From: Ignavibacteria bacterium
Lineage (GTDB): Bacteria; Bacteroidota; Ignavibacteria; Tepidaquicellales; OLB5
Direction: 5' to 3'
Assembly (NCBI GenBank): GCA_019912545.1
Contig: JAIOIK010000036.1
Location: forward strand, 5,159-69,158
DNA: 64,000 nucleotides
The notes under the pieces were generated by a model. It was not told the origin of the DNA and searched no databases. It saw nothing but the letters and a program-made list of their open reading frames with translations. Positions 2,873 to 28,124 of the stretch are shown here, in pieces (position 1 is the first letter of the stretch; each line of letters starts with the position of its first letter). The translations under genes and the position numbers were made by a program.

Positions 2873-3184
2873 TGATTAAGAATAACCTGGGGATACTTAA
2901 TCAAGAAACCTTTAAAACGGTTTTTCAATAACGCCATTCAACCAACCCACGACTAAAGTCGTGGGCTATTAGCAAAACTAATCTTGCTCAATTCAAATTT
3001 TCTTCCTGAAACTTGCAGCCTCTAACCTGAATCATGAAACCTGTAACCTGCCTCCTCTCCCCTGTTACATATTTTTACAAACATTTACTGCAAACTCTGA
3101 GATATTGTATTATTTTTATAATGGTTTTTGGGGAAAAACTTTAGCAACCAAATTAACCTAATCATAATATTGAGGAGACTAGAC

Positions 3185-4450
3185 ATGATTACATATTCAA
3201 AACAAATAAAAATTGGGATTATTTTGATCGCGGCACTGGTGTTTACTGCCGCATCAAACCTGTCCGATTCTTCACCACAGCTTATGGCTGATTCTTCCCC
3301 ATTTGTGCAGGCCGAATCACCTGCAATGTTCTCGCCTAACTCCACAGCCGATTCAGTGGTCTTTCAGAATGACAGCACATTTACAATTGAAGGTGTTCAG
3401 GATGAACTCTCTAAAGACGGCGAGTGGATAAAAGTCACTGAAGCTGAGATTGACCCCAACGGAGTTACCGAAAGCGAAGGATTTGACGACGAAATTAACA
3501 GGGAATGGGTTTGGCGGCCGAACAATATGGAGCCGGATTGGAATCCCTACACATACGGCTATTGGGAATACACCAATTGCGGATGGATGTGGGTTTCTTA
3601 CTACTCATGGGGATGGCGAACAAGCCATTACGGCCGATGGTGGTGGAGCGAGTATTACGGCTGGGTATGGTCGCCCGGTTATGTTTGGGCCCCCGCCTGG
3701 GTTGTGTGGATGTATAACGACGGCTATTGCGGCTGGTATCCGATATCACCAAGAATAAGATACCACCGACACTACGGTTACAGATGTCACAAAATGCGTT
3801 ATCACACAAGGAAGTGGCGGTTCTGCCGTAAGAAAGATTTCGCCGATCCATTGCATCCGCCGGTATTGGTTATAGATCCGGGACAGAATCCGGTAATTAT
3901 AACAACTTCCACGTATGACGGAAACCTGAAAGTATCCAGAGCGGGCATAAAGAACCACGGCCCGAACATTAAGGATATTGAAAACGCAACAGGAAAGAAA
4001 TTCGAGCCTGTAAACGTAACCAAGTATAACAACATAAAGATCATTGAGGATAAACGTGATCCGAATATTAAGATAAAAAAGACCGATGATAACAGCTCGA
4101 TAAAGAACGATAAGCGGGATGATAATAACAGCAATAAAAGGTATGATCCGCCTCCAACTGATAATAATGATAAGCGGAGCGACGATAAGAGCAATGAAAA
4201 GAAGTATGAACAGCCTGATAAGAAAAAGGAAACATACACTCCGCCGACAAAGAAGAATGACGATAACCGCAAATATGATAAGCCAAAGGATACCTACACT
4301 CCGCCGCCTAATAATGGGAATGATAACAATGATAACAACCCCGGCAGGAAAGACAATCAGCCTCCACCTCCCCCGCCGCCTAAAAACGACGACGGCAATA
4401 AGCGCGATGACGGGAATAAACAGGATGATGGAAATAAAAAGGGCAGATAG
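3185..4450 (+). CDS. Secreted W/Y/G-rich (YXWGXW-type repeat) protein with a long K/D/N/P low-complexity tail
   Basis: GAGGAG RBS before ATG 3185. Signal-like N-terminus MITYSKQIKIGIILIAALVFTAAS. Dense WxWxxxYGW repeats (WGWRTSHYGRWWWSEYYGWVWSPGYVWAPAWVVW). The tail is rich in KRDD/NND/PPP. Confidence 0.75.
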   Translation: MITYSKQIKIGIILIAALVFTAASNLSDSSPQLMADSSPFVQAESPAMFSPNSTADSVVFQNDSTFTIEGVQDELSKDGEWIKVTEAEIDPNGVTESEGFDDEINREWVWRPNNMEPDWNPYTYGYWEYTNCGWMWVSYYSWGWRTSHYGRWWWSEYYGWVWSPGYVWAPAWVVWMYNDGYCGWYPISPRIRYHRHYGYRCHKMRYHTRKWRFCRKKDFADPLHPPVLVIDPGQNPVIITTSTYDGNLKVSRAGIKNHGPNIKDIENATGKKFEPVNVTKYNNIKIIEDKRDPNIKIKKTDDNSSIKNDKRDDNNSNKRYDPPPTDNNDKRSDDKSNEKKYEQPDKKKETYTPPTKKNDDNRKYDKPKDTYTPPPNNGNDNNDNNPGRKDNQPPPPPPPKNDDGNKRDDGNKQDDGNKKGR

Positions 4451-4461
4451 TTGAATGCGTG

Positions 4462-4503
4462 GTGTCAGGTAGCTTGTCCGCCCACTGGCGGATAACCTAA
4501 CAC
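4462..4503. repeat. Nested GC-rich hairpin element (outer GTGTcAGGT/ACCTaACAC, inner TGTCCGCCCACTGGCGGA)
   Basis: Read directly from the sequence. It shares its core with the 2832-2872 element. Confidence 0.7.
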
Positions 4504-4522
4504 TTTAATGATTAACTCAAAA

Positions 4523-4548
4523 GGGTCGCAATTGCGACCCCTTTTTTT
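4523..4548 (+). terminator. Rho-independent terminator
   Basis: Palindrome GGGTCGCAATTGCGACCC followed by C and a T7 run. Confidence 0.85.
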
Positions 4549-4614
4549 ACACAATTTTTCGCTTAAATTTAAATCAAAATTTACTATCTTAGTACCAATC
4601 TAATTTTTTGTTTT

Positions 4615-4640
4615 GTCATTCCTGCGAAGGCAGGTATTGA
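4615..4640. repeat. Short GC hairpin repeat GTCATT-CCTGC-gaag-GCAGG-TATTGA
   Basis: Member of the CCTGC..GCAGG hairpin family seen at 8176, 59671, 60861 and 62323. Confidence 0.6.
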
Positions 4641-4746
4641 TTTTTAAATGAAATGTGCACGAACTTGTTGCCTAAATATTTATGTTTATATTGTACTGAT
4701 TTAAATTTATATTTAAATATTACTCTATCTACTTAAATATTTTAAC

Positions 4747-4941
4747 ATGAATAAGAAAGAAGAAAGAACACAGATTTTTTCAATAACTTTAGCTGATTTA
4801 CAAAGAGAATCTTCACAAAGGTTAGGGAGAAGATTAAATAATGTGGAAATTGAAATTGCAAAGAAGGGTATTGAAAACGGATTGCAGTTTGATATAGACA
4901 CCATTTATAATACTATATTTTATGAAATGTTAGAAAACTAA
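4747..4941 (+). CDS. Hypothetical small protein (64 aa), first gene of the AT-rich island
   Basis: ORF only, with no motif I recognise. Its stop lies 6 nt before the next gene's start. Confidence 0.45.
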   Translation: MNKKEERTQIFSITLADLQRESSQRLGRRLNNVEIEIAKKGIENGLQFDIDTIYNTIFYEMLEN

Positions 4942-4947
4942 AAGTAT

Positions 4948-5874
4948 TTGAAAAAATTGTCAAATACGGAACAATTAGCTTTGCAGTTCCTTGAAAAAGC
5001 GAAAGCGTTTCAAGCTGACGTTGAATTATTAAAAGTACTTAAATCCCGAACATATCGCATTGGAAAAGCAAATGTGTTGGTAAGAGCAGCATCAGAGGGG
5101 AACCGGAGATATTTTTTTGGAATTAATTATTTAACAGTTGAAGAAATTGCTAATTTAGAAAACCCGTTTGTTGCTTTTATTTGTGGATCAATTGATAAAG
5201 TTTTAATTATACCCGCAAAACTTCTTTTTAACAATTTACCTAAAATTAGCCATGATAGAAATGGCGAATATAAAATCAATATTGACCAGGAATTGAATAT
5301 CGTACTCTTAGGTAGAAACAATCGTTTACCTTGCAATAATTTTATGAATAATTGGGAATTACTCATTACAGATAAGTTACAACAAGAGGAAGTTAAAAAC
5401 TCAGTTGAGGAAAGTTTACATTCAGTATTACAGGGTAGATTAATTGAAATAGGCAACATTCGTGGTTATCATACATATTGTCCAGATAAATCGAAGATGT
5501 TTAATGATAAAAAACTTGATGAAATAACCCTTTTGAAAACTTGTCCTAAATTAGAATTTTCTGATCATAACCTTTTGAGACAAATTGATGTGATCTGGTT
5601 TCGAAATAGAGGAAATAATTTTATTCCAGAATTTGCTTTTGAAGTTGAATTATCAACAGGAGTTTGGAGTGGTGTGGGAAGATTATCAACGTTGATTGAC
5701 TATTCAAATACAGCATTATATGTTATTGCAAATGATGGCAAGAAGTTTAAACAAGTAATTTCTACGTTTTCTGAACATAAAGAAAGATATAAGTTTGTTA
5801 CGAGTGAATCGATTGGTGAATTGTATTCTGCCGAAAGAAACGTAAAAAAACTACAAATAGACATTGGTCTATGA
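4948..5874 (+). CDS. Hypothetical two-domain protein; the C-terminal half resembles a PD-(D/E)xK restriction-endonuclease-like fold
   Basis: 308 aa with a TTG start. C-terminal pattern HSVLQGRLIEIGNIRGY ... IDVIWF (D214) ... FAFEVELST (E232-x-E234) ... GRLSTL. The coding DNA is visibly AT-rich compared with its neighbours. Confidence 0.6.
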   Translation: MKKLSNTEQLALQFLEKAKAFQADVELLKVLKSRTYRIGKANVLVRAASEGNRRYFFGINYLTVEEIANLENPFVAFICGSIDKVLIIPAKLLFNNLPKISHDRNGEYKINIDQELNIVLLGRNNRLPCNNFMNNWELLITDKLQQEEVKNSVEESLHSVLQGRLIEIGNIRGYHTYCPDKSKMFNDKKLDEITLLKTCPKLEFSDHNLLRQIDVIWFRNRGNNFIPEFAFEVELSTGVWSGVGRLSTLIDYSNTALYVIANDGKKFKQVISTFSEHKERYKFVTSESIGELYSAERNVKKLQIDIGL

Positions 5875-5891
5875 GAAAAAAGTAAATATGA

Positions 5892-6083
5892 TTTTGTAAT
5901 CTCAAAAAAAATTTGTCATTGAGAGGAATGCTTGATCTGGATAATGAGTTAATGGTAGGAAAAGAATTTTGGGACTTTGTAGGGGGAAAAGGTGCATATG
6001 AGGAATTGCTGGGATGTTTTGAGAGAGTTGGTATTGAGCTTAGACCTGAAATCGATGCATATTTTAAAAAATTCATAAAATAA
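5892..6083 (+). pseudogene. Possible C-terminal remnant of a type II restriction endonuclease-like gene
   Basis: The short open frame encodes ...GKEFWDFVGGKGAYEELLGCFERVGIELRPEIDAYFKKFIK*. I recall this as resembling C-termini of TdeIII-like restriction enzymes. No matching N-terminal body lies upstream (in-frame stop at 5889). Confidence 0.35.
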
Positions 6084-6777
6084 CTCTTACATTTTCTTTC
6101 ATCTTTCCCCCTTGCATATGCAATTCACATATGTTATATTCTCCATGTATGCATAGGGCATTTTGTCCTTCTTAATTCATTTAACAGTCCGGTATATGAG
6201 AGCACATTTCACTTTGCGTAAAACATTTTGTTTAGAAAGGAGCGATTTTCGGCAACAATTTTTCTTCAAAATTGCAGCTTTTGTGATTGAACGCAGTTCA
6301 ATCATATAGGGTTTGGCTGTTTGAGCGGGACTTTCCGCAATTAAATCCCAAAATCAACAAAAGTGCAGTTGAGCTTCCTGAAAAAAGCGCCTATTCTGCC
6401 GGATTGTCCAGCAGTTCGCGTGTTTTTTAGGAGTGTTAAGCTGCTGTAAATTCATGTTTCTTTAAAATAGTTTTTGGCGGCAATATCACCAAAACCGGGT
6501 CTTTGCGCTAAACTCAACTTTGATCTTGACTACACTAATATAAGTTAGTGAAAATTCGTGTGCATTAGTGGCTAAGGCTTTTTCTTTTATCTTCACAGCC
6601 TTTAGAATCGCCTTAGATCGGCAGGTTATATGTAAAACCTTGATTACTATCAAAAAATTCGTTATTTTTACAGGTTAATTTCGTTTAATATTGTCTTTAA
6701 TATATTTAAGCAGGGACTATATTCCCTTAAAGCATTATTTTATTTGATAATCATTACATTCGCCGAGGGCGATATCA

Positions 6778-27090: not shown

Positions 27091-27173
27091 GGGTAGGTAG
27101 CGAAGTGGTTAAACGCATCAGACTGTAAATCTGACGGCTTATGCCTTCGGAGGTTCGAATCCTTCCCTACCCA
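27091..27173 (+). tRNA. tRNA-Tyr (GTA), long variable arm
   Basis: Cloverleaf folded by hand: acceptor GGGTAGG/CCTACCC, anticodon loop CTGTAAA, T-loop TTCGAAT. Confidence 0.9.
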
Positions 27174-27319
27174 CGCAGTACTTTTTTCTTAAGAATAAAA
27201 TCAATTTCCGAAATATATCTTTCAGGTTACAGGAAGTAAGAGTTTTTAGATTTATTCAGCAAAAGAAAATTCAATTTTCTTCATGCTGTTTCTTTGTTCT
27301 TTAGGAAAATTATTTTAAT

Positions 27320-27392
<73 letters not shown>

Positions 27393-27417
27393 CTGGCGAG
27401 CTTCATTAAAATTACAA

Positions 27418-27468
27418 GCGGGAGTAACTCAGTTGGTAGAGTCATCCCGCAAGGCGGGATTGGTCGCC
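27418..27468 (+). pseudogene. Truncated tRNA-Gly-like fragment (5' two-thirds; anticodon arm replaced by a GC hairpin, no T arm)
   Basis: The first 27 nt (GCGGGAGTAACTCAGTTGGTAGAGTCA) are identical to the intact tRNA-Gly at 27497. They are followed by ATCCCGC-aag-GCGGGAT, then TTGGTCGC, after which similarity is lost. Confidence 0.65.
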
Positions 27469-27496
27469 TGTTCTTTTGGAGATTAGAGTTTGATTA

Positions 27497-27569
27497 GCGG
27501 GAGTAACTCAGTTGGTAGAGTCACAGCCTTCCAAGCTGTTGGTCGCGAGTTCGAGTCTCGTCTCCCGCT
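27497..27569 (+). tRNA. tRNA-Gly (TCC)
   Basis: Acceptor GCGGGAG/CTCCCGC, anticodon arm ACAGC-CTTCCAA-GCTGT, T arm GCGAG-TTCGAGT-CTCGT. Confidence 0.9.
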
Positions 27570-27573
27570 CAGT

Positions 27574-27811
27574 ATGTTTTATGTTTATGTATTGAAAAGT
27601 TTGGTTTGCGAAAAAACATTACATTGGACAAACCAAAGACCCGGAAAAACGATTAGCAATTCATAACAGTAATAAAGCCGGGTGGACGAAAAGACATCAA
27701 CCTTGGGTTTTAGTTCATAAAGAAGAATTTATGACCCGCTCAGAAGCATTGATAAGGGAAAAAGAAATTAAAGTCTTGAAAGACATTAAAAAGTTTCTAA
27801 CTTCCATTTAA
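27574..27811 (+). pseudogene. GIY-YIG (URI/YhbQ-like) nuclease gene, frameshifted at an A6 run
   Basis: Frame 1 gives MFYVYVLKSLVCEK..., which stops at 27664. The +1 frame from 27611 gives KKHYIGQTKDPEKRLAIHNSNKAGWTKRHQPWVLVHKEEFMTRSEALIREKEIKVLK...*. Together these make a complete GIY..YIG..R..H..E domain. Confidence 0.75.
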
Positions 27812-27846
27812 GATTCACAAAAAGAAAAATTTAATTTTACATACTA

Positions 27847-28008
27847 ATGGCAAAAGACGGCAGACTAATTTTAACTCTTGAATGTACTAACTGCAAAAAC
27901 AGGAATTACAGTACAACAAAGAACAAGACAAAGCACTCAGGCAGAATAGAACATAAGAAATTCTGCAGGTTCTGTAATAAACGTACTTTACATAAAGAAA
28001 CCAAGTAA
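27847..28008 (+). CDS. rpmG: 50S ribosomal protein L33
   Basis: 53-aa ORF below the track cutoff: [53 protein letters not shown], with two CxxC pairs. Confidence 0.9.
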
Positions 28009-28009
28009 T

Positions 28010-28082
28010 ACGTCAGTGGCTCAATTGGTAGAGCAGCGGTCTCCAAAACCGCAGGTTGGGGGTTCGAGTCCCTCCTGACGTG
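28010..28082 (+). tRNA. tRNA-Trp (CCA)
   Basis: Acceptor ACGTCAG/CTGACGT, anticodon arm GCGGT-CTCCAAA-ACCGC, T-loop TTCGAGT. Confidence 0.9.
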
Positions 28083-28124
28083 CAACACTATCGTGCAAAA
28101 AGATCGTAAACCGGAGATTTTATA

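Follow-up and report, generated by a model that had tools for sequence, protein, structure and literature searches.

Genes and features of an AT-rich island upstream of ffh

The DNA studied here is a 64,000-nt stretch of contig JAIOIK010000036.1 of an Ignavibacteria bacterium (the window, in whose coordinates positions are given), and the element of interest is an AT-rich island upstream of ffh, which encodes a 64-aa protein, a 308-aa nuclease-type protein and the last part of a restriction enzyme (Table 1). A first-pass annotation, made from the sequence alone, had judged the island AT-rich by eye, and this was confirmed: the GC fraction in 300-nt windows is 0.25-0.33 over positions 4500-6150 against 0.40-0.53 in the flanks, with means of 0.295 for 4638-6100 and 0.384 for the whole window. 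The open reading frame (ORF) scan likewise found the 64-aa and 308-aa ORFs where they had been reported, on the same strand and 6 nt apart, while a further frame is open at 5892-6083 and contains a 56-aa ORF. The reported lack of a methyltransferase was also borne out, as no such ORF or fragment was present in the ORF list for 4450-6777, and tblastn with a 517-aa methylase found nothing in the window; with neither a cognate methylase nor a complete restriction endonuclease gene, the island is not a classical type II restriction-modification (R-M) system. Its extent, first given as 4560-6777, had to be reduced on both sides. The hairpin at 4616-4640 also follows the DUF6600 gene in a related genome (L060; loci from other genomes are numbered with the prefix L), which places the left edge near 4640 rather than 4560, and the AT-rich part stops at approximately 6100. 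DNA homology of the window to 50 loci carrying related genes is limited to 4774-6084, and we take the foreign AT-rich segment to be about 4640-6100.

Comparing the junction between the DUF6600 gene and ffh in related genomes had been suggested as a check on whether the island is accessory. It is accessory, and the junction is a site of variable cargo: Ffh is 86-89% identical in the relatives L059, L060 and L061, whereas the DNA between the DUF6600 gene and ffh differs in each. There is approximately 0.5 kb of intergenic DNA in L061 and 2.2 kb with unassigned ORFs in L060, while the 4.5 kb in L059 encode a secreted BNR-repeat protein with a Por secretion tail, an Xre/MbcA/ParS-RES toxin-antitoxin (TA) pair (L059:9206-10183; Pfam E-values of 3.6e-13 for the antitoxin and 1.9e-18 for the toxin) and a YCII protein. 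The identical island is present on contigs of the same strain.

Table 1. Positions of the features found between the DUF6600 gene and ffh
Feature	Position	Strand	Basis and remarks
Intrinsic terminator of the DUF6600 gene, native left flank	4523..4548	+	7-bp stem with 6 GC pairs, then a T-run; DUF6600 ORF ends at 4450
Repetitive extragenic palindrome (REP)-like hairpin GTCATTCCTGCGAAGGCAGG, probably native, left limit of island	4616..4640	+	One copy in the window; near-identical GTCATTCCCGCGCAGGCGGGAAT after the DUF6600 gene in L060
AT-rich module leader	4641..4746	+	GC approximately 0.25; promoter-like TTTATA-17-TATATT at 4685-4713 (promoter scan); no methylase trace
Small partner protein type A, 64 aa	4747..4941	+	ORF; 6 nt 5' of the nuclease gene
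Nuclease N-terminal domain, residues 1-140	4948..5367	+	Hjc/RecU-like nuclease-type alpha/beta fold (AlphaFold, Foldseek); 308-aa ORF is 4948-5874
Nuclease C-terminal catalytic domain (predicted), residues 140-308	5365..5874	+	NmeDI_C / PD-(D/E)xK; PF27126, REase_II, AlphaFold
Putative metal-binding residues	D214 5587-5589, E232 5641-5643, E234 5647-5649	+	Conservation
38-nt filler, the deletion junction between nuclease stop and remnant ORF	5875..5912	+	No homology to any cassette
TdeIII/HinfI-family restriction enzyme, C-terminal piece, residues 203-258	5913..6083	+	PF09520, tblastn
ORF-free stretch with host-like GC	6084..6620		Probably native intergenic DNA; not demonstrably island
Native ffh upstream region	6621..6777	+	55-nt block 6634-6688; hairpin GGGACTATATTCCC at 6713-6728

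A reduced copy of a five-gene restriction-modification cassette

The genes of the island recur in a larger setting in Emticicia oligotrophica (L001), in the order helix-turn-helix (HTH) regulator (100 aa), N6_N4 methylase (517 aa; M), 64-aa ORF, 310-aa nuclease and 258-aa TdeIII/HinfI-family restriction enzyme (R). Strain DSM 17448 of this species has the intact cassette, with Emtol_1122 as its nuclease homolog. In the intact cassettes of L001, L026 and L032 the genes overlap or nearly abut and form one operon, and the order M, small ORF, nuclease, R places an effector-type gene within an R-M operon, of which the window keeps only the R tail. The island is a reduced copy of this horizontally spread five-gene cassette: the controller, the methylase and residues 1-202 of the restriction enzyme are missing, and the frames for the 64-aa small protein, the 308-aa nuclease and the restriction-enzyme end (51-56 residues) are still open. 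The small ORF and the nuclease gene are referred to below as the module.

The methylase has at least 8000 homologs, the top 120 of which are full length and 80-96% identical, and different middle genes are found beside methylases with 90-95% protein identity. M is directly followed by a 351-aa TdeIII-family enzyme in L074-77, where the slot between M and R is empty, while L078 and L084-86 have an AIPR abortive-infection protein (573 aa) before the 351-aa enzyme, and L082-83 have a GmrSD_N+HNH protein (514 aa) before an enzyme of 260 aa. When L082 is compared with L001, the DNA is 92.8% identical over regulator and M and 93% over R (98.8% at the protein level), and only the middle gene differs. 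The small ORF and nuclease are thus one of several alternative cargoes of a single operon slot. The two TdeIII-family enzymes paired with this one methylase family (351 aa versus 258-260 aa) share 25% identity. There is precedent for latent toxin nucleases inside R-M operons and for their repeated displacement, and the alternative cargoes fit the published idea that immunity and suicide are coupled (PMC3506569, PMC2292703). The cassette of L001 itself has a restriction gene without an ATG startcodon, as the L082 sequence ATG GCA CTA ACA is replaced by TGG GCT ATA ACT in L001, and among the sampled module loci only L041 has a restriction gene with complete N-terminus and startcodon.

Two further observations concern the cassette family. 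In L003 the methylase piece is closest to that of L012 (proportion of synonymous differences, pS, of 0.26), while the nuclease is closest to that of L011 (pS 0.15, versus 0.68 to L012), and such mosaic synonymous divergence implies recombination between cassettes. An IMG/VR contig (IMGVR_UViG_3300003890_000025, L067:5004-6578) encodes a further full-length member of this methylase family, 61% identical, which adjoins neither a restriction enzyme nor a nuclease and is probably a phage orphan methylase protecting against this R-M family.

The frame at 5892-6083 had been described as resembling the C-terminal end of TdeIII-type restriction enzymes, and this was correct: the 56-aa ORF matches PF09520 (RE_TdeIII, now HinfI) with an E-value of 2.6e-14 (53.9 bits, cut-off 27.2), albeit only over the last 38 positions of the profile (205-242 of 242), and aligns in tblastn with residues 203-255 of a 258-aa relative at 70% identity. 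It had also been taken as a sign that the locus hosted R-M or defence genes earlier, and the remnant does not show this, as the nuclease is followed directly by this remnant in about 20 unrelated genomes as well. The remnant is the tail of the nuclease's own cassette, because the homology to cassette loci spans 4774-6084 and the alignment is with residues 203-255 of the cassette enzyme, and because in other members of the methylase family the space between M and R is empty or filled by AIPR or GmrSD-HNH. Its translation may start at the TTG at 5913 (56 aa) or at the ATG at 5928-5930 (51 aa), the latter preceded by AGAGGA, which is supplied by the natural R-G-M-L codons. The final 50 codons of the restriction-enzyme gene were located in 21 loci and in each of these read in frame up to the native stop, and in six loci, one of them the window, the remnant ORFs counted from the first startcodon converge on 49-56 aa. 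The proportion of non-synonymous differences (pN) among fragment-only loci is 0.19 against a pS of 0.89 (0.13 versus 0.78 for long copies), and in the sister loci L015 and L034, which apparently share one junction, it is 0.11 versus 0.93. These substitution patterns suggest that the remnant may be a retained mini-gene rather than dead DNA. An apparent fusion of nuclease and restriction enzyme in L033 was discarded, as the tblastn alignment ran through a stop codon, and a difference in remnant length between contigs with protein P0002 reflected only different gene calling.

Fold and distribution of the 308-aa nuclease

The C-terminal half of the 308-aa protein contains the motif IDVIWF...FAFEVELST, in which the first-pass annotation had seen a nuclease-like D...ExE pattern. 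Conservation agrees with this, as D214, E232 and E234 are invariant in 40 close homologs and at least 90% conserved in 99 distant relatives, and the triad is retained in 45 of 46 loci. AlphaFold with the 40 close homologs gave a first model in which residues 1-140 had block-mean predicted local distance difference test scores (pLDDT) of mostly 75-91 (57-68 in three blocks) and the C-terminal domain (C-domain) was unfolded (pLDDT 30-60), and an alignment of 99 sequences including distant C-domain relatives then gave a model of residues 140-308 with a pLDDT of 95.3. D214 opens strand 215-221 in that model and E232 and E234 are at the end of strand 224-234, within an alpha-beta-beta-beta-alpha-beta core with the acidic residues on strands 2 and 3, as is expected for PD-(D/E)xK nucleases. 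The best match of the C-domain to a solved structure in Foldseek was BsaWI (4zsf; probability 0.93, query-normalised TM-score 0.48, E 0.02, 11% identity), followed by Nt.BspD6I, BsmI, D212 and Mus81, with all matches weak (E >=0.02); weak Foldseek E-values are usual for restriction enzymes. Together with a match to the PADLOC REase_II model (PDLC03534, 351 positions; E 3.6e-6, residues 162-271), this upholds the nuclease assignment of the C-terminal half, and no non-nuclease fold was found. On the modelled structure, the C-domain is a catalytic PD-(D/E)xK domain from the NmeDI_C family, and its putative metal site, D214...E232-x-E234, is an acidic triad with E replacing K which resembles the BamHI-type D...ExE active site.

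Foldseek with the first model matched Hjc, RecU, MepB, I-Ssp6803I and PvuII (probability up to 0.99, target-normalised TM-score 0.58). The Hjc and RecU matches were assigned to the N-terminal domain (N-domain) by exclusion, because they were absent from the search with the C-domain only, and we therefore consider that the protein combines two nuclease-type folds. The N-domain has no recognisable D...ExK triad, and it probably functions in DNA binding, as an effector, or in assembly or dimerisation. No modified-base reader (SRA, EVE, YTH, winged helix or DUF3578) was found in the 308-aa protein by Pfam, and the structural matches of the N-domain were nuclease folds.

The nuclease had been described as an orphan, which is not the case: a database search gave at least 1046 homologs, reported at 58-79% identity, with full-length identities of 69-100% for the best 120, and a precomputed PF27126 (NmeDI_C) tag is attached to the identical protein P0001 and to all 120 homologs listed. 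The copy of Pfam searched here, which was without the PF27126 model, and NCBIfam gave no match for either the 308-aa or the 64-aa protein, and sequence searches of the PDB gave only noise, with no sequence-level relation of the nuclease to any solved structure. Homologs are found in about 15 phyla, with hosts in the Bacteroidota, Ignavibacteria, Planctomycetota, Chloroflexi, Saccharibacteria/Patescibacteria, Acidobacteria and Desulfobacterota as well as the Thermodesulfovibrionia, Leptospiraceae, Clostridia, Fidelibacterota and others. For the analysis of gene context we sampled one genome per species, which resulted in 51 loci with nucleases 58-77% identical, and the nuclease gene was AT-richer than its flanks in 38/38 loci (mean GC 0.33 vs 0.44). 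Clustering at 50% reduced the full-length family to few clusters, and several hundred proteins that begin differently share residues 150-300 as their C-terminal domain, some of the distant ones being fused to HARE-HTH and EVE domains. Solitary distant C-domain relatives of 416-427 aa were also seen on Enterococcus and Mucilaginibacter plasmids (L087:3296-4579 and L088:3359-4609), where they lie amid metal-resistance genes without a methylase nearby, and one of these is annotated as 'type II restriction endonuclease'.

Erosion of the cassette around an intact nuclease

Of the non-redundant loci, 46 including the window have a full-length nuclease, and only four of these (L001, L024, L026 and L032) have an intact methylase. 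In approximately 40 loci an intact nuclease is accompanied by a truncated or absent methylase, and standing without a cognate methylase is a property shared with type IV enzymes. The ratio of non-synonymous to synonymous substitution rates (dN/dS) of the nuclease is 0.02-0.17 across loci. L003 and L011 share one methylase-truncation junction (...DPF|EKNVITNN*), and their nucleases have a dN/dS of 0.12 (27 synonymous and 14 non-synonymous changes), while codons 5-85 of the methylase piece have 16.5 synonymous versus 4.5 non-synonymous changes (omega 0.05). The module therefore does not need a cognate methylase, in line with what had been proposed for the island, and such persistence after loss of the methylase would be impossible for a classical restriction enzyme. 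This bears on the reading of the 308-aa protein as a second or alternative restriction endonuclease for the methylase's site, or a subunit of one, of which the gene has not yet decayed in a dying cassette. Its location in one operon with M and R fits such a role, as do the membership of its C-domain in the family of the type II enzyme R.NmeDI (PMC2095814), the likeness to BsaWI and the UniRef name of one homolog, 'restriction endonuclease'. An active enzyme of this kind would however be lethal without the methylase, and yet the gene is intact with its catalytic residues in approximately 40 methylase-less loci against four with a methylase. Purifying selection persists after methylase truncation, and M and R decay around the nuclease in a highly non-random manner, and we consider this reading very improbable.

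The non-random decay is evident from the pieces that are left. Restriction-gene remnants begin 0-60 nt after the nuclease stop and run to the native stop, with starts at residue 3, 13-22, 26, 31, 43, 48, 55, 111, 142, 184, 187, 196, 203 (the window), 215 or 233, while methylase remnants start at residues 1-5 and end at residues 15-183, with a stop that adjoins the small ORF or overlaps with it. The closest other nuclease, at 79% identity, is in a different genome context and has junctions of its own, retaining methylase residues 3-44 and restriction-enzyme residues 183-241. Among partial methylase genes the N-terminal piece, distal to the module, is kept in 18 loci, the C-terminal piece in none and an internal piece only in three, and among partial restriction-enzyme genes the distal C-terminal piece is kept in 19 loci versus an N-terminal piece only in four. 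This is the reverse of neutral decay beside a selected gene, which should spare the proximal pieces. Part of the reason may be selection on the distal pieces themselves, of which the substitution patterns of the methylase piece and the restriction-enzyme tail and the open frames of the latter are suggestive, albeit not conclusive, with the qualification that most of the divergence could predate the deletions and that cases with a shared junction are few. A tentative extension, which we hold to be rather less likely than the function proposed below for the nuclease and its partner, is that the reduced cassette is a recurrently evolved unit of three or four parts, consisting of the nuclease, the exchangeable small acidic partner, the restriction-enzyme tail of approximately 50-56 aa and, in many genomes but not in the window, the HTH-bearing residues 1-140/160 of the methylase. 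Selection would then keep the R-M pieces because they regulate, or form subunits of, a nuclease that acts by itself in defence or addiction, and the slot between M and R would be a general exchange site for second-line defence genes.

We also considered that the module is a homing-type mobile nuclease which targets the M-R junction and causes the flanking deletions itself. The resemblance of the N-domain to Hjc and the homing endonuclease I-Ssp6803I would agree with this, and so would the invariable position between the same two gene families, the anchoring of flank erosion at the module borders and the recombination implied by the mosaic synonymous divergence along the cassette. Nevertheless, the unrelated AIPR and GmrSD-HNH genes use the same slot, no conserved border sequences were found at the module junctions across loci, and homing would copy the donor junctions rather than create new ones. 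Moreover, nuclease identity tracks the identity of the methylase fragment (Spearman 0.65), and with such correlated divergence independent mobility of the core was judged unlikely. Of all readings discussed here homing is the least probable.

A small partner gene with exchangeable families

The first-pass annotation described the 64-aa ORF as coupled to the nuclease, and a conserved small partner next to the nuclease in nearly all loci supports this. The small ORF adjoins the nuclease in all but approximately two of the loci not ended by the contig, mostly 2-30 nt upstream, and the gap between the two genes is -20 to +36 nt in most loci. Small ORFs belong to at least four unrelated families: type A, to which the window protein belongs (net charge -2, isoelectric point (pI) 5.0), is directly 5' of the nuclease in about 31 loci with 36-64% identity, type B was found in 11 loci upstream and two downstream, type C in three and type D in one. 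The types are scattered over the nuclease tree, and the proteins are mostly acidic (pI 4.2-5.0). A database search with the 64-aa protein found only itself, and its relatives were therefore taken from the fetched nuclease loci; no small partners were found outside nuclease loci in the fetched DNA. Translation of the small ORF is also preserved where deletions reach it. In L018 (2188-2418) methylase residues 1-15 are fused in frame to the type A protein, and in L044 (5208-5585) residues 131-183 are joined in frame to a type B protein, and in both fusions the small protein stays translated from the methylase start, while a stop/start overlap has the same effect in L003.

A small gene followed by a larger nuclease gene, tightly coupled in one operon (with a 6-nt gap in the window), is the arrangement of type II TA modules, which raises the possibility that the pair is an addiction or selfish module without a role in defence, whose deletion kills the cell, which would let it persist as its neighbours erode, and which hitch-hikes with R-M cassettes. 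Unrelated partner families are exchanged as they are for antitoxins, in dozens of loci the deletions on either side end at a distance of 0-60 nt from the pair, and the Xre/RES TA pair of L059 occupies the same junction as the island. Conversely, the pair does not match any toxin or antitoxin family, the nuclease of L043 is without a partner and has kept its catalytic residues, and the correlation of nuclease and methylase-fragment identity gives no sign of independent mobility. Addiction alone also leaves the retention of distal over proximal pieces unexplained, and overall we think it unlikely, although less so than a second restriction enzyme.

A proposed second-line defence function

The function proposed in the first-pass annotation, a two-gene defence or toxin module that may be type IV-like, is still among the live readings. 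The reading we favour, albeit with somewhat less than even confidence, is that nuclease and partner form a methylase-independent second-line defence nuclease which is held in check or tuned by the small protein. From the observed anatomy and retention of the module we infer a pair that would be a self-contained effector carried in the slot between M and R. The nuclease would leave unmethylated host DNA uncut, which we propose as the reason for its persistence once the methylase is lost. The partner, a small and usually acidic protein that would be translated just before the nuclease, most likely keeps it inactive or tunes it, and infection would remove this control, upon which the nuclease would cut DNA.

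Several observations speak against such a function. Intact cassettes hold both the nuclease and an active-looking methylase, which blurs any role of methylation. Nucleases that are 85% identical can carry unrelated partner types, an odd finding for a tightly binding partner, the partner lies downstream of the nuclease in a few loci, and L043 has no detected small ORF and a nuclease with its catalytic residues kept. Small-protein types A-D had no match in Pfam, NCBIfam, PADLOC, PHROGs or the PDB and belong to no known antitoxin or inhibitor family, and no PADLOC defence model beyond the generic REase_II matches the 308-aa protein. Finally, no full-length member of the nuclease family was found in the phage, IMG/VR and plasmid collections, and the flanks of the island in the window are housekeeping genes rather than a defence island.

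Second in rank, and possible rather than probable, is that the 308-aa protein is a modification-dependent (type IV) enzyme, of which the N-domain would read a modified base or site and the C-domain would cut, with the small protein as an accessory subunit. Such an enzyme would be harmless to unmodified hosts and would complement the R-M system against phages escaping it by DNA modification. This would account for the intact nuclease in approximately 40 methylase-less loci, it is in keeping with GmrSD_N+HNH, a type IV family, filling the same slot between near-identical M and R, and distant C-domain relatives are either fused to HARE-HTH/EVE domains or found alone on plasmids without a methylase. 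The matches of the N-domain are however to the nuclease folds of Hjc, RecU and PvuII and not to SRA, EVE, YTH or winged-helix readers. The nuclease cannot target the mark of the N6/N4 methylase, as the two occur together in intact cassettes and the methylase is apparently active, and nothing in known type IV enzymes corresponds to the near-universal and often swapped small partner. The second-line defence function and modification dependence are compatible and do not exclude each other.

DNA between the remnant and ffh, and other features of the window

The stretch 6084-6777 is without sizeable ORFs, as had been reported (none is longer than 55 aa), but the suggestion that it holds decayed genes or a non-coding RNA (ncRNA) found no support. 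Its short ORFs gave no Pfam match at E<=10, and tblastx detected no similarity to the cassette loci or to the cargo of the relatives, so gene remnants were rejected. An ncRNA was rejected as well, since Rfam gave no match at the gathering cut-off or at E<=1, folding z-scores were only -2.3 on the + strand and -1.3 on the - strand, and 6084-6620 has no repeat and no homolog in any fetched locus other than the same-strain contigs. The GC fraction of 6100-6620 is host-like (0.382), and 6084-6620 is probably native intergenic DNA. Downstream of this, the block 6634-6688 and the hairpin at 6713-6728 recur with 78-80% identity 100-190 nt upstream of ffh in L059, L060 and L061, which do not have the island, and have no matching Rfam family; their conservation suggests that they may be an ffh promoter or leader element. 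A long imperfect hairpin at 6365-6445, which overlaps a terminator-like site at 6400-6418, has no homolog elsewhere.

On the other side of the island, the DUF6600 protein (3128-4450) has a W/Y/G-rich core (Pfam E 5.6e-23) and a long low-complexity tail with many K, D, N and P residues, and the repeat pattern of this tail is very different among the relatives L059-L061. Further downstream in the window there is a cluster of tRNA genes on the + strand (27091-28083; Tyr-GTA, Thr-GGT, Gly-TCC and Trp-CCA).

Significance and comparison with known systems

If the module is an autonomous effector, it is an uncharacterised and very widespread two-gene system, with more than 1000 sequence clusters in approximately 15 phyla including candidate-phyla-radiation bacteria, which no current defence catalogue recognises beyond the generic 'REase_II' model. 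The near-identical M and R genes around three different middle genes (the module, AIPR and GmrSD-HNH) form a natural experiment on the coupling of immunity and suicide, and dozens of lineages have shed the R-M shell yet kept the module. This makes it possible to test whether control over embedded nucleases lies with the R-M proteins or with the dedicated partner, and which selection pressure retains them. If the leftover methylase and restriction-enzyme pieces are under selection, as appears to be so, this would be an unusual reuse of R-M gene fragments.

The closest known arrangements are PrrC in the EcoprrI operon and AIPR in R-M operons, while the closest protein relative is R.NmeDI and the closest by fold is BsaWI. 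PrrC of the EcoprrI type Ic R-M operon, which follows the same logic as RloC, is a latent nuclease carried in an R-M operon as a second line of defence, in an association conserved across bacteria (PMC3506569), and the module would be a comparable case. PrrC differs in being an RNase (HEPN) with an ABC ATPase domain that is silenced by the R-M proteins, whereas the window protein is of the PD-(D/E)xK DNA-nuclease type, belongs to a type II operon, has its own small partner gene and persists after R-M loss. The abortive-infection proteins AIPR/AbiU1, of which AIPR is described as common in R-M operons (PMC2292703), occupy the identical slot with the same methylase family and a TdeIII-family enzyme (L078, L084-86), but AIPR is unrelated and has no small partner, being a single 573-aa protein whose N-terminus is of the HEPN type. 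The type IV enzymes GmrSD and BrxU are comparable in that GmrSD_N+HNH replaces the module between M and R which are 93% identical in DNA, with a logic of complementary cover against modified phage DNA, but they have DUF262/ParB-like and HNH folds and likewise no small partner.

At the level of the protein, R.NmeDI of Neisseria meningitidis (recognising RCCGGY and cutting on both sides) has a C-terminal catalytic domain homologous to that of the window nuclease and is the 351-aa orthodox partner of a C5 methylase (PMC2095814), while the window nuclease has a different N-terminal domain, is associated with an N6/N4 methylase family and survives without methylase. BsaWI and the CCGG family of PD-(D/E)xK enzymes provide the best, albeit weak, structural likeness to the C-domain (E 0.02, 11% identity). 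The coupling of a small upstream gene to a larger gene for a toxic-type enzyme, with unrelated partners exchanged, is shared with type II TA modules, but there is no homology to TA families, the partner is sometimes downstream or absent, and the module resides within an R-M operon. What sets the module apart from all of these is the combination of a dedicated yet exchangeable partner, a second and apparently inactive nuclease-type domain, a type II operon as its home, and recurrent survival after the R-M genes have been shed, possibly together with pieces of those genes.

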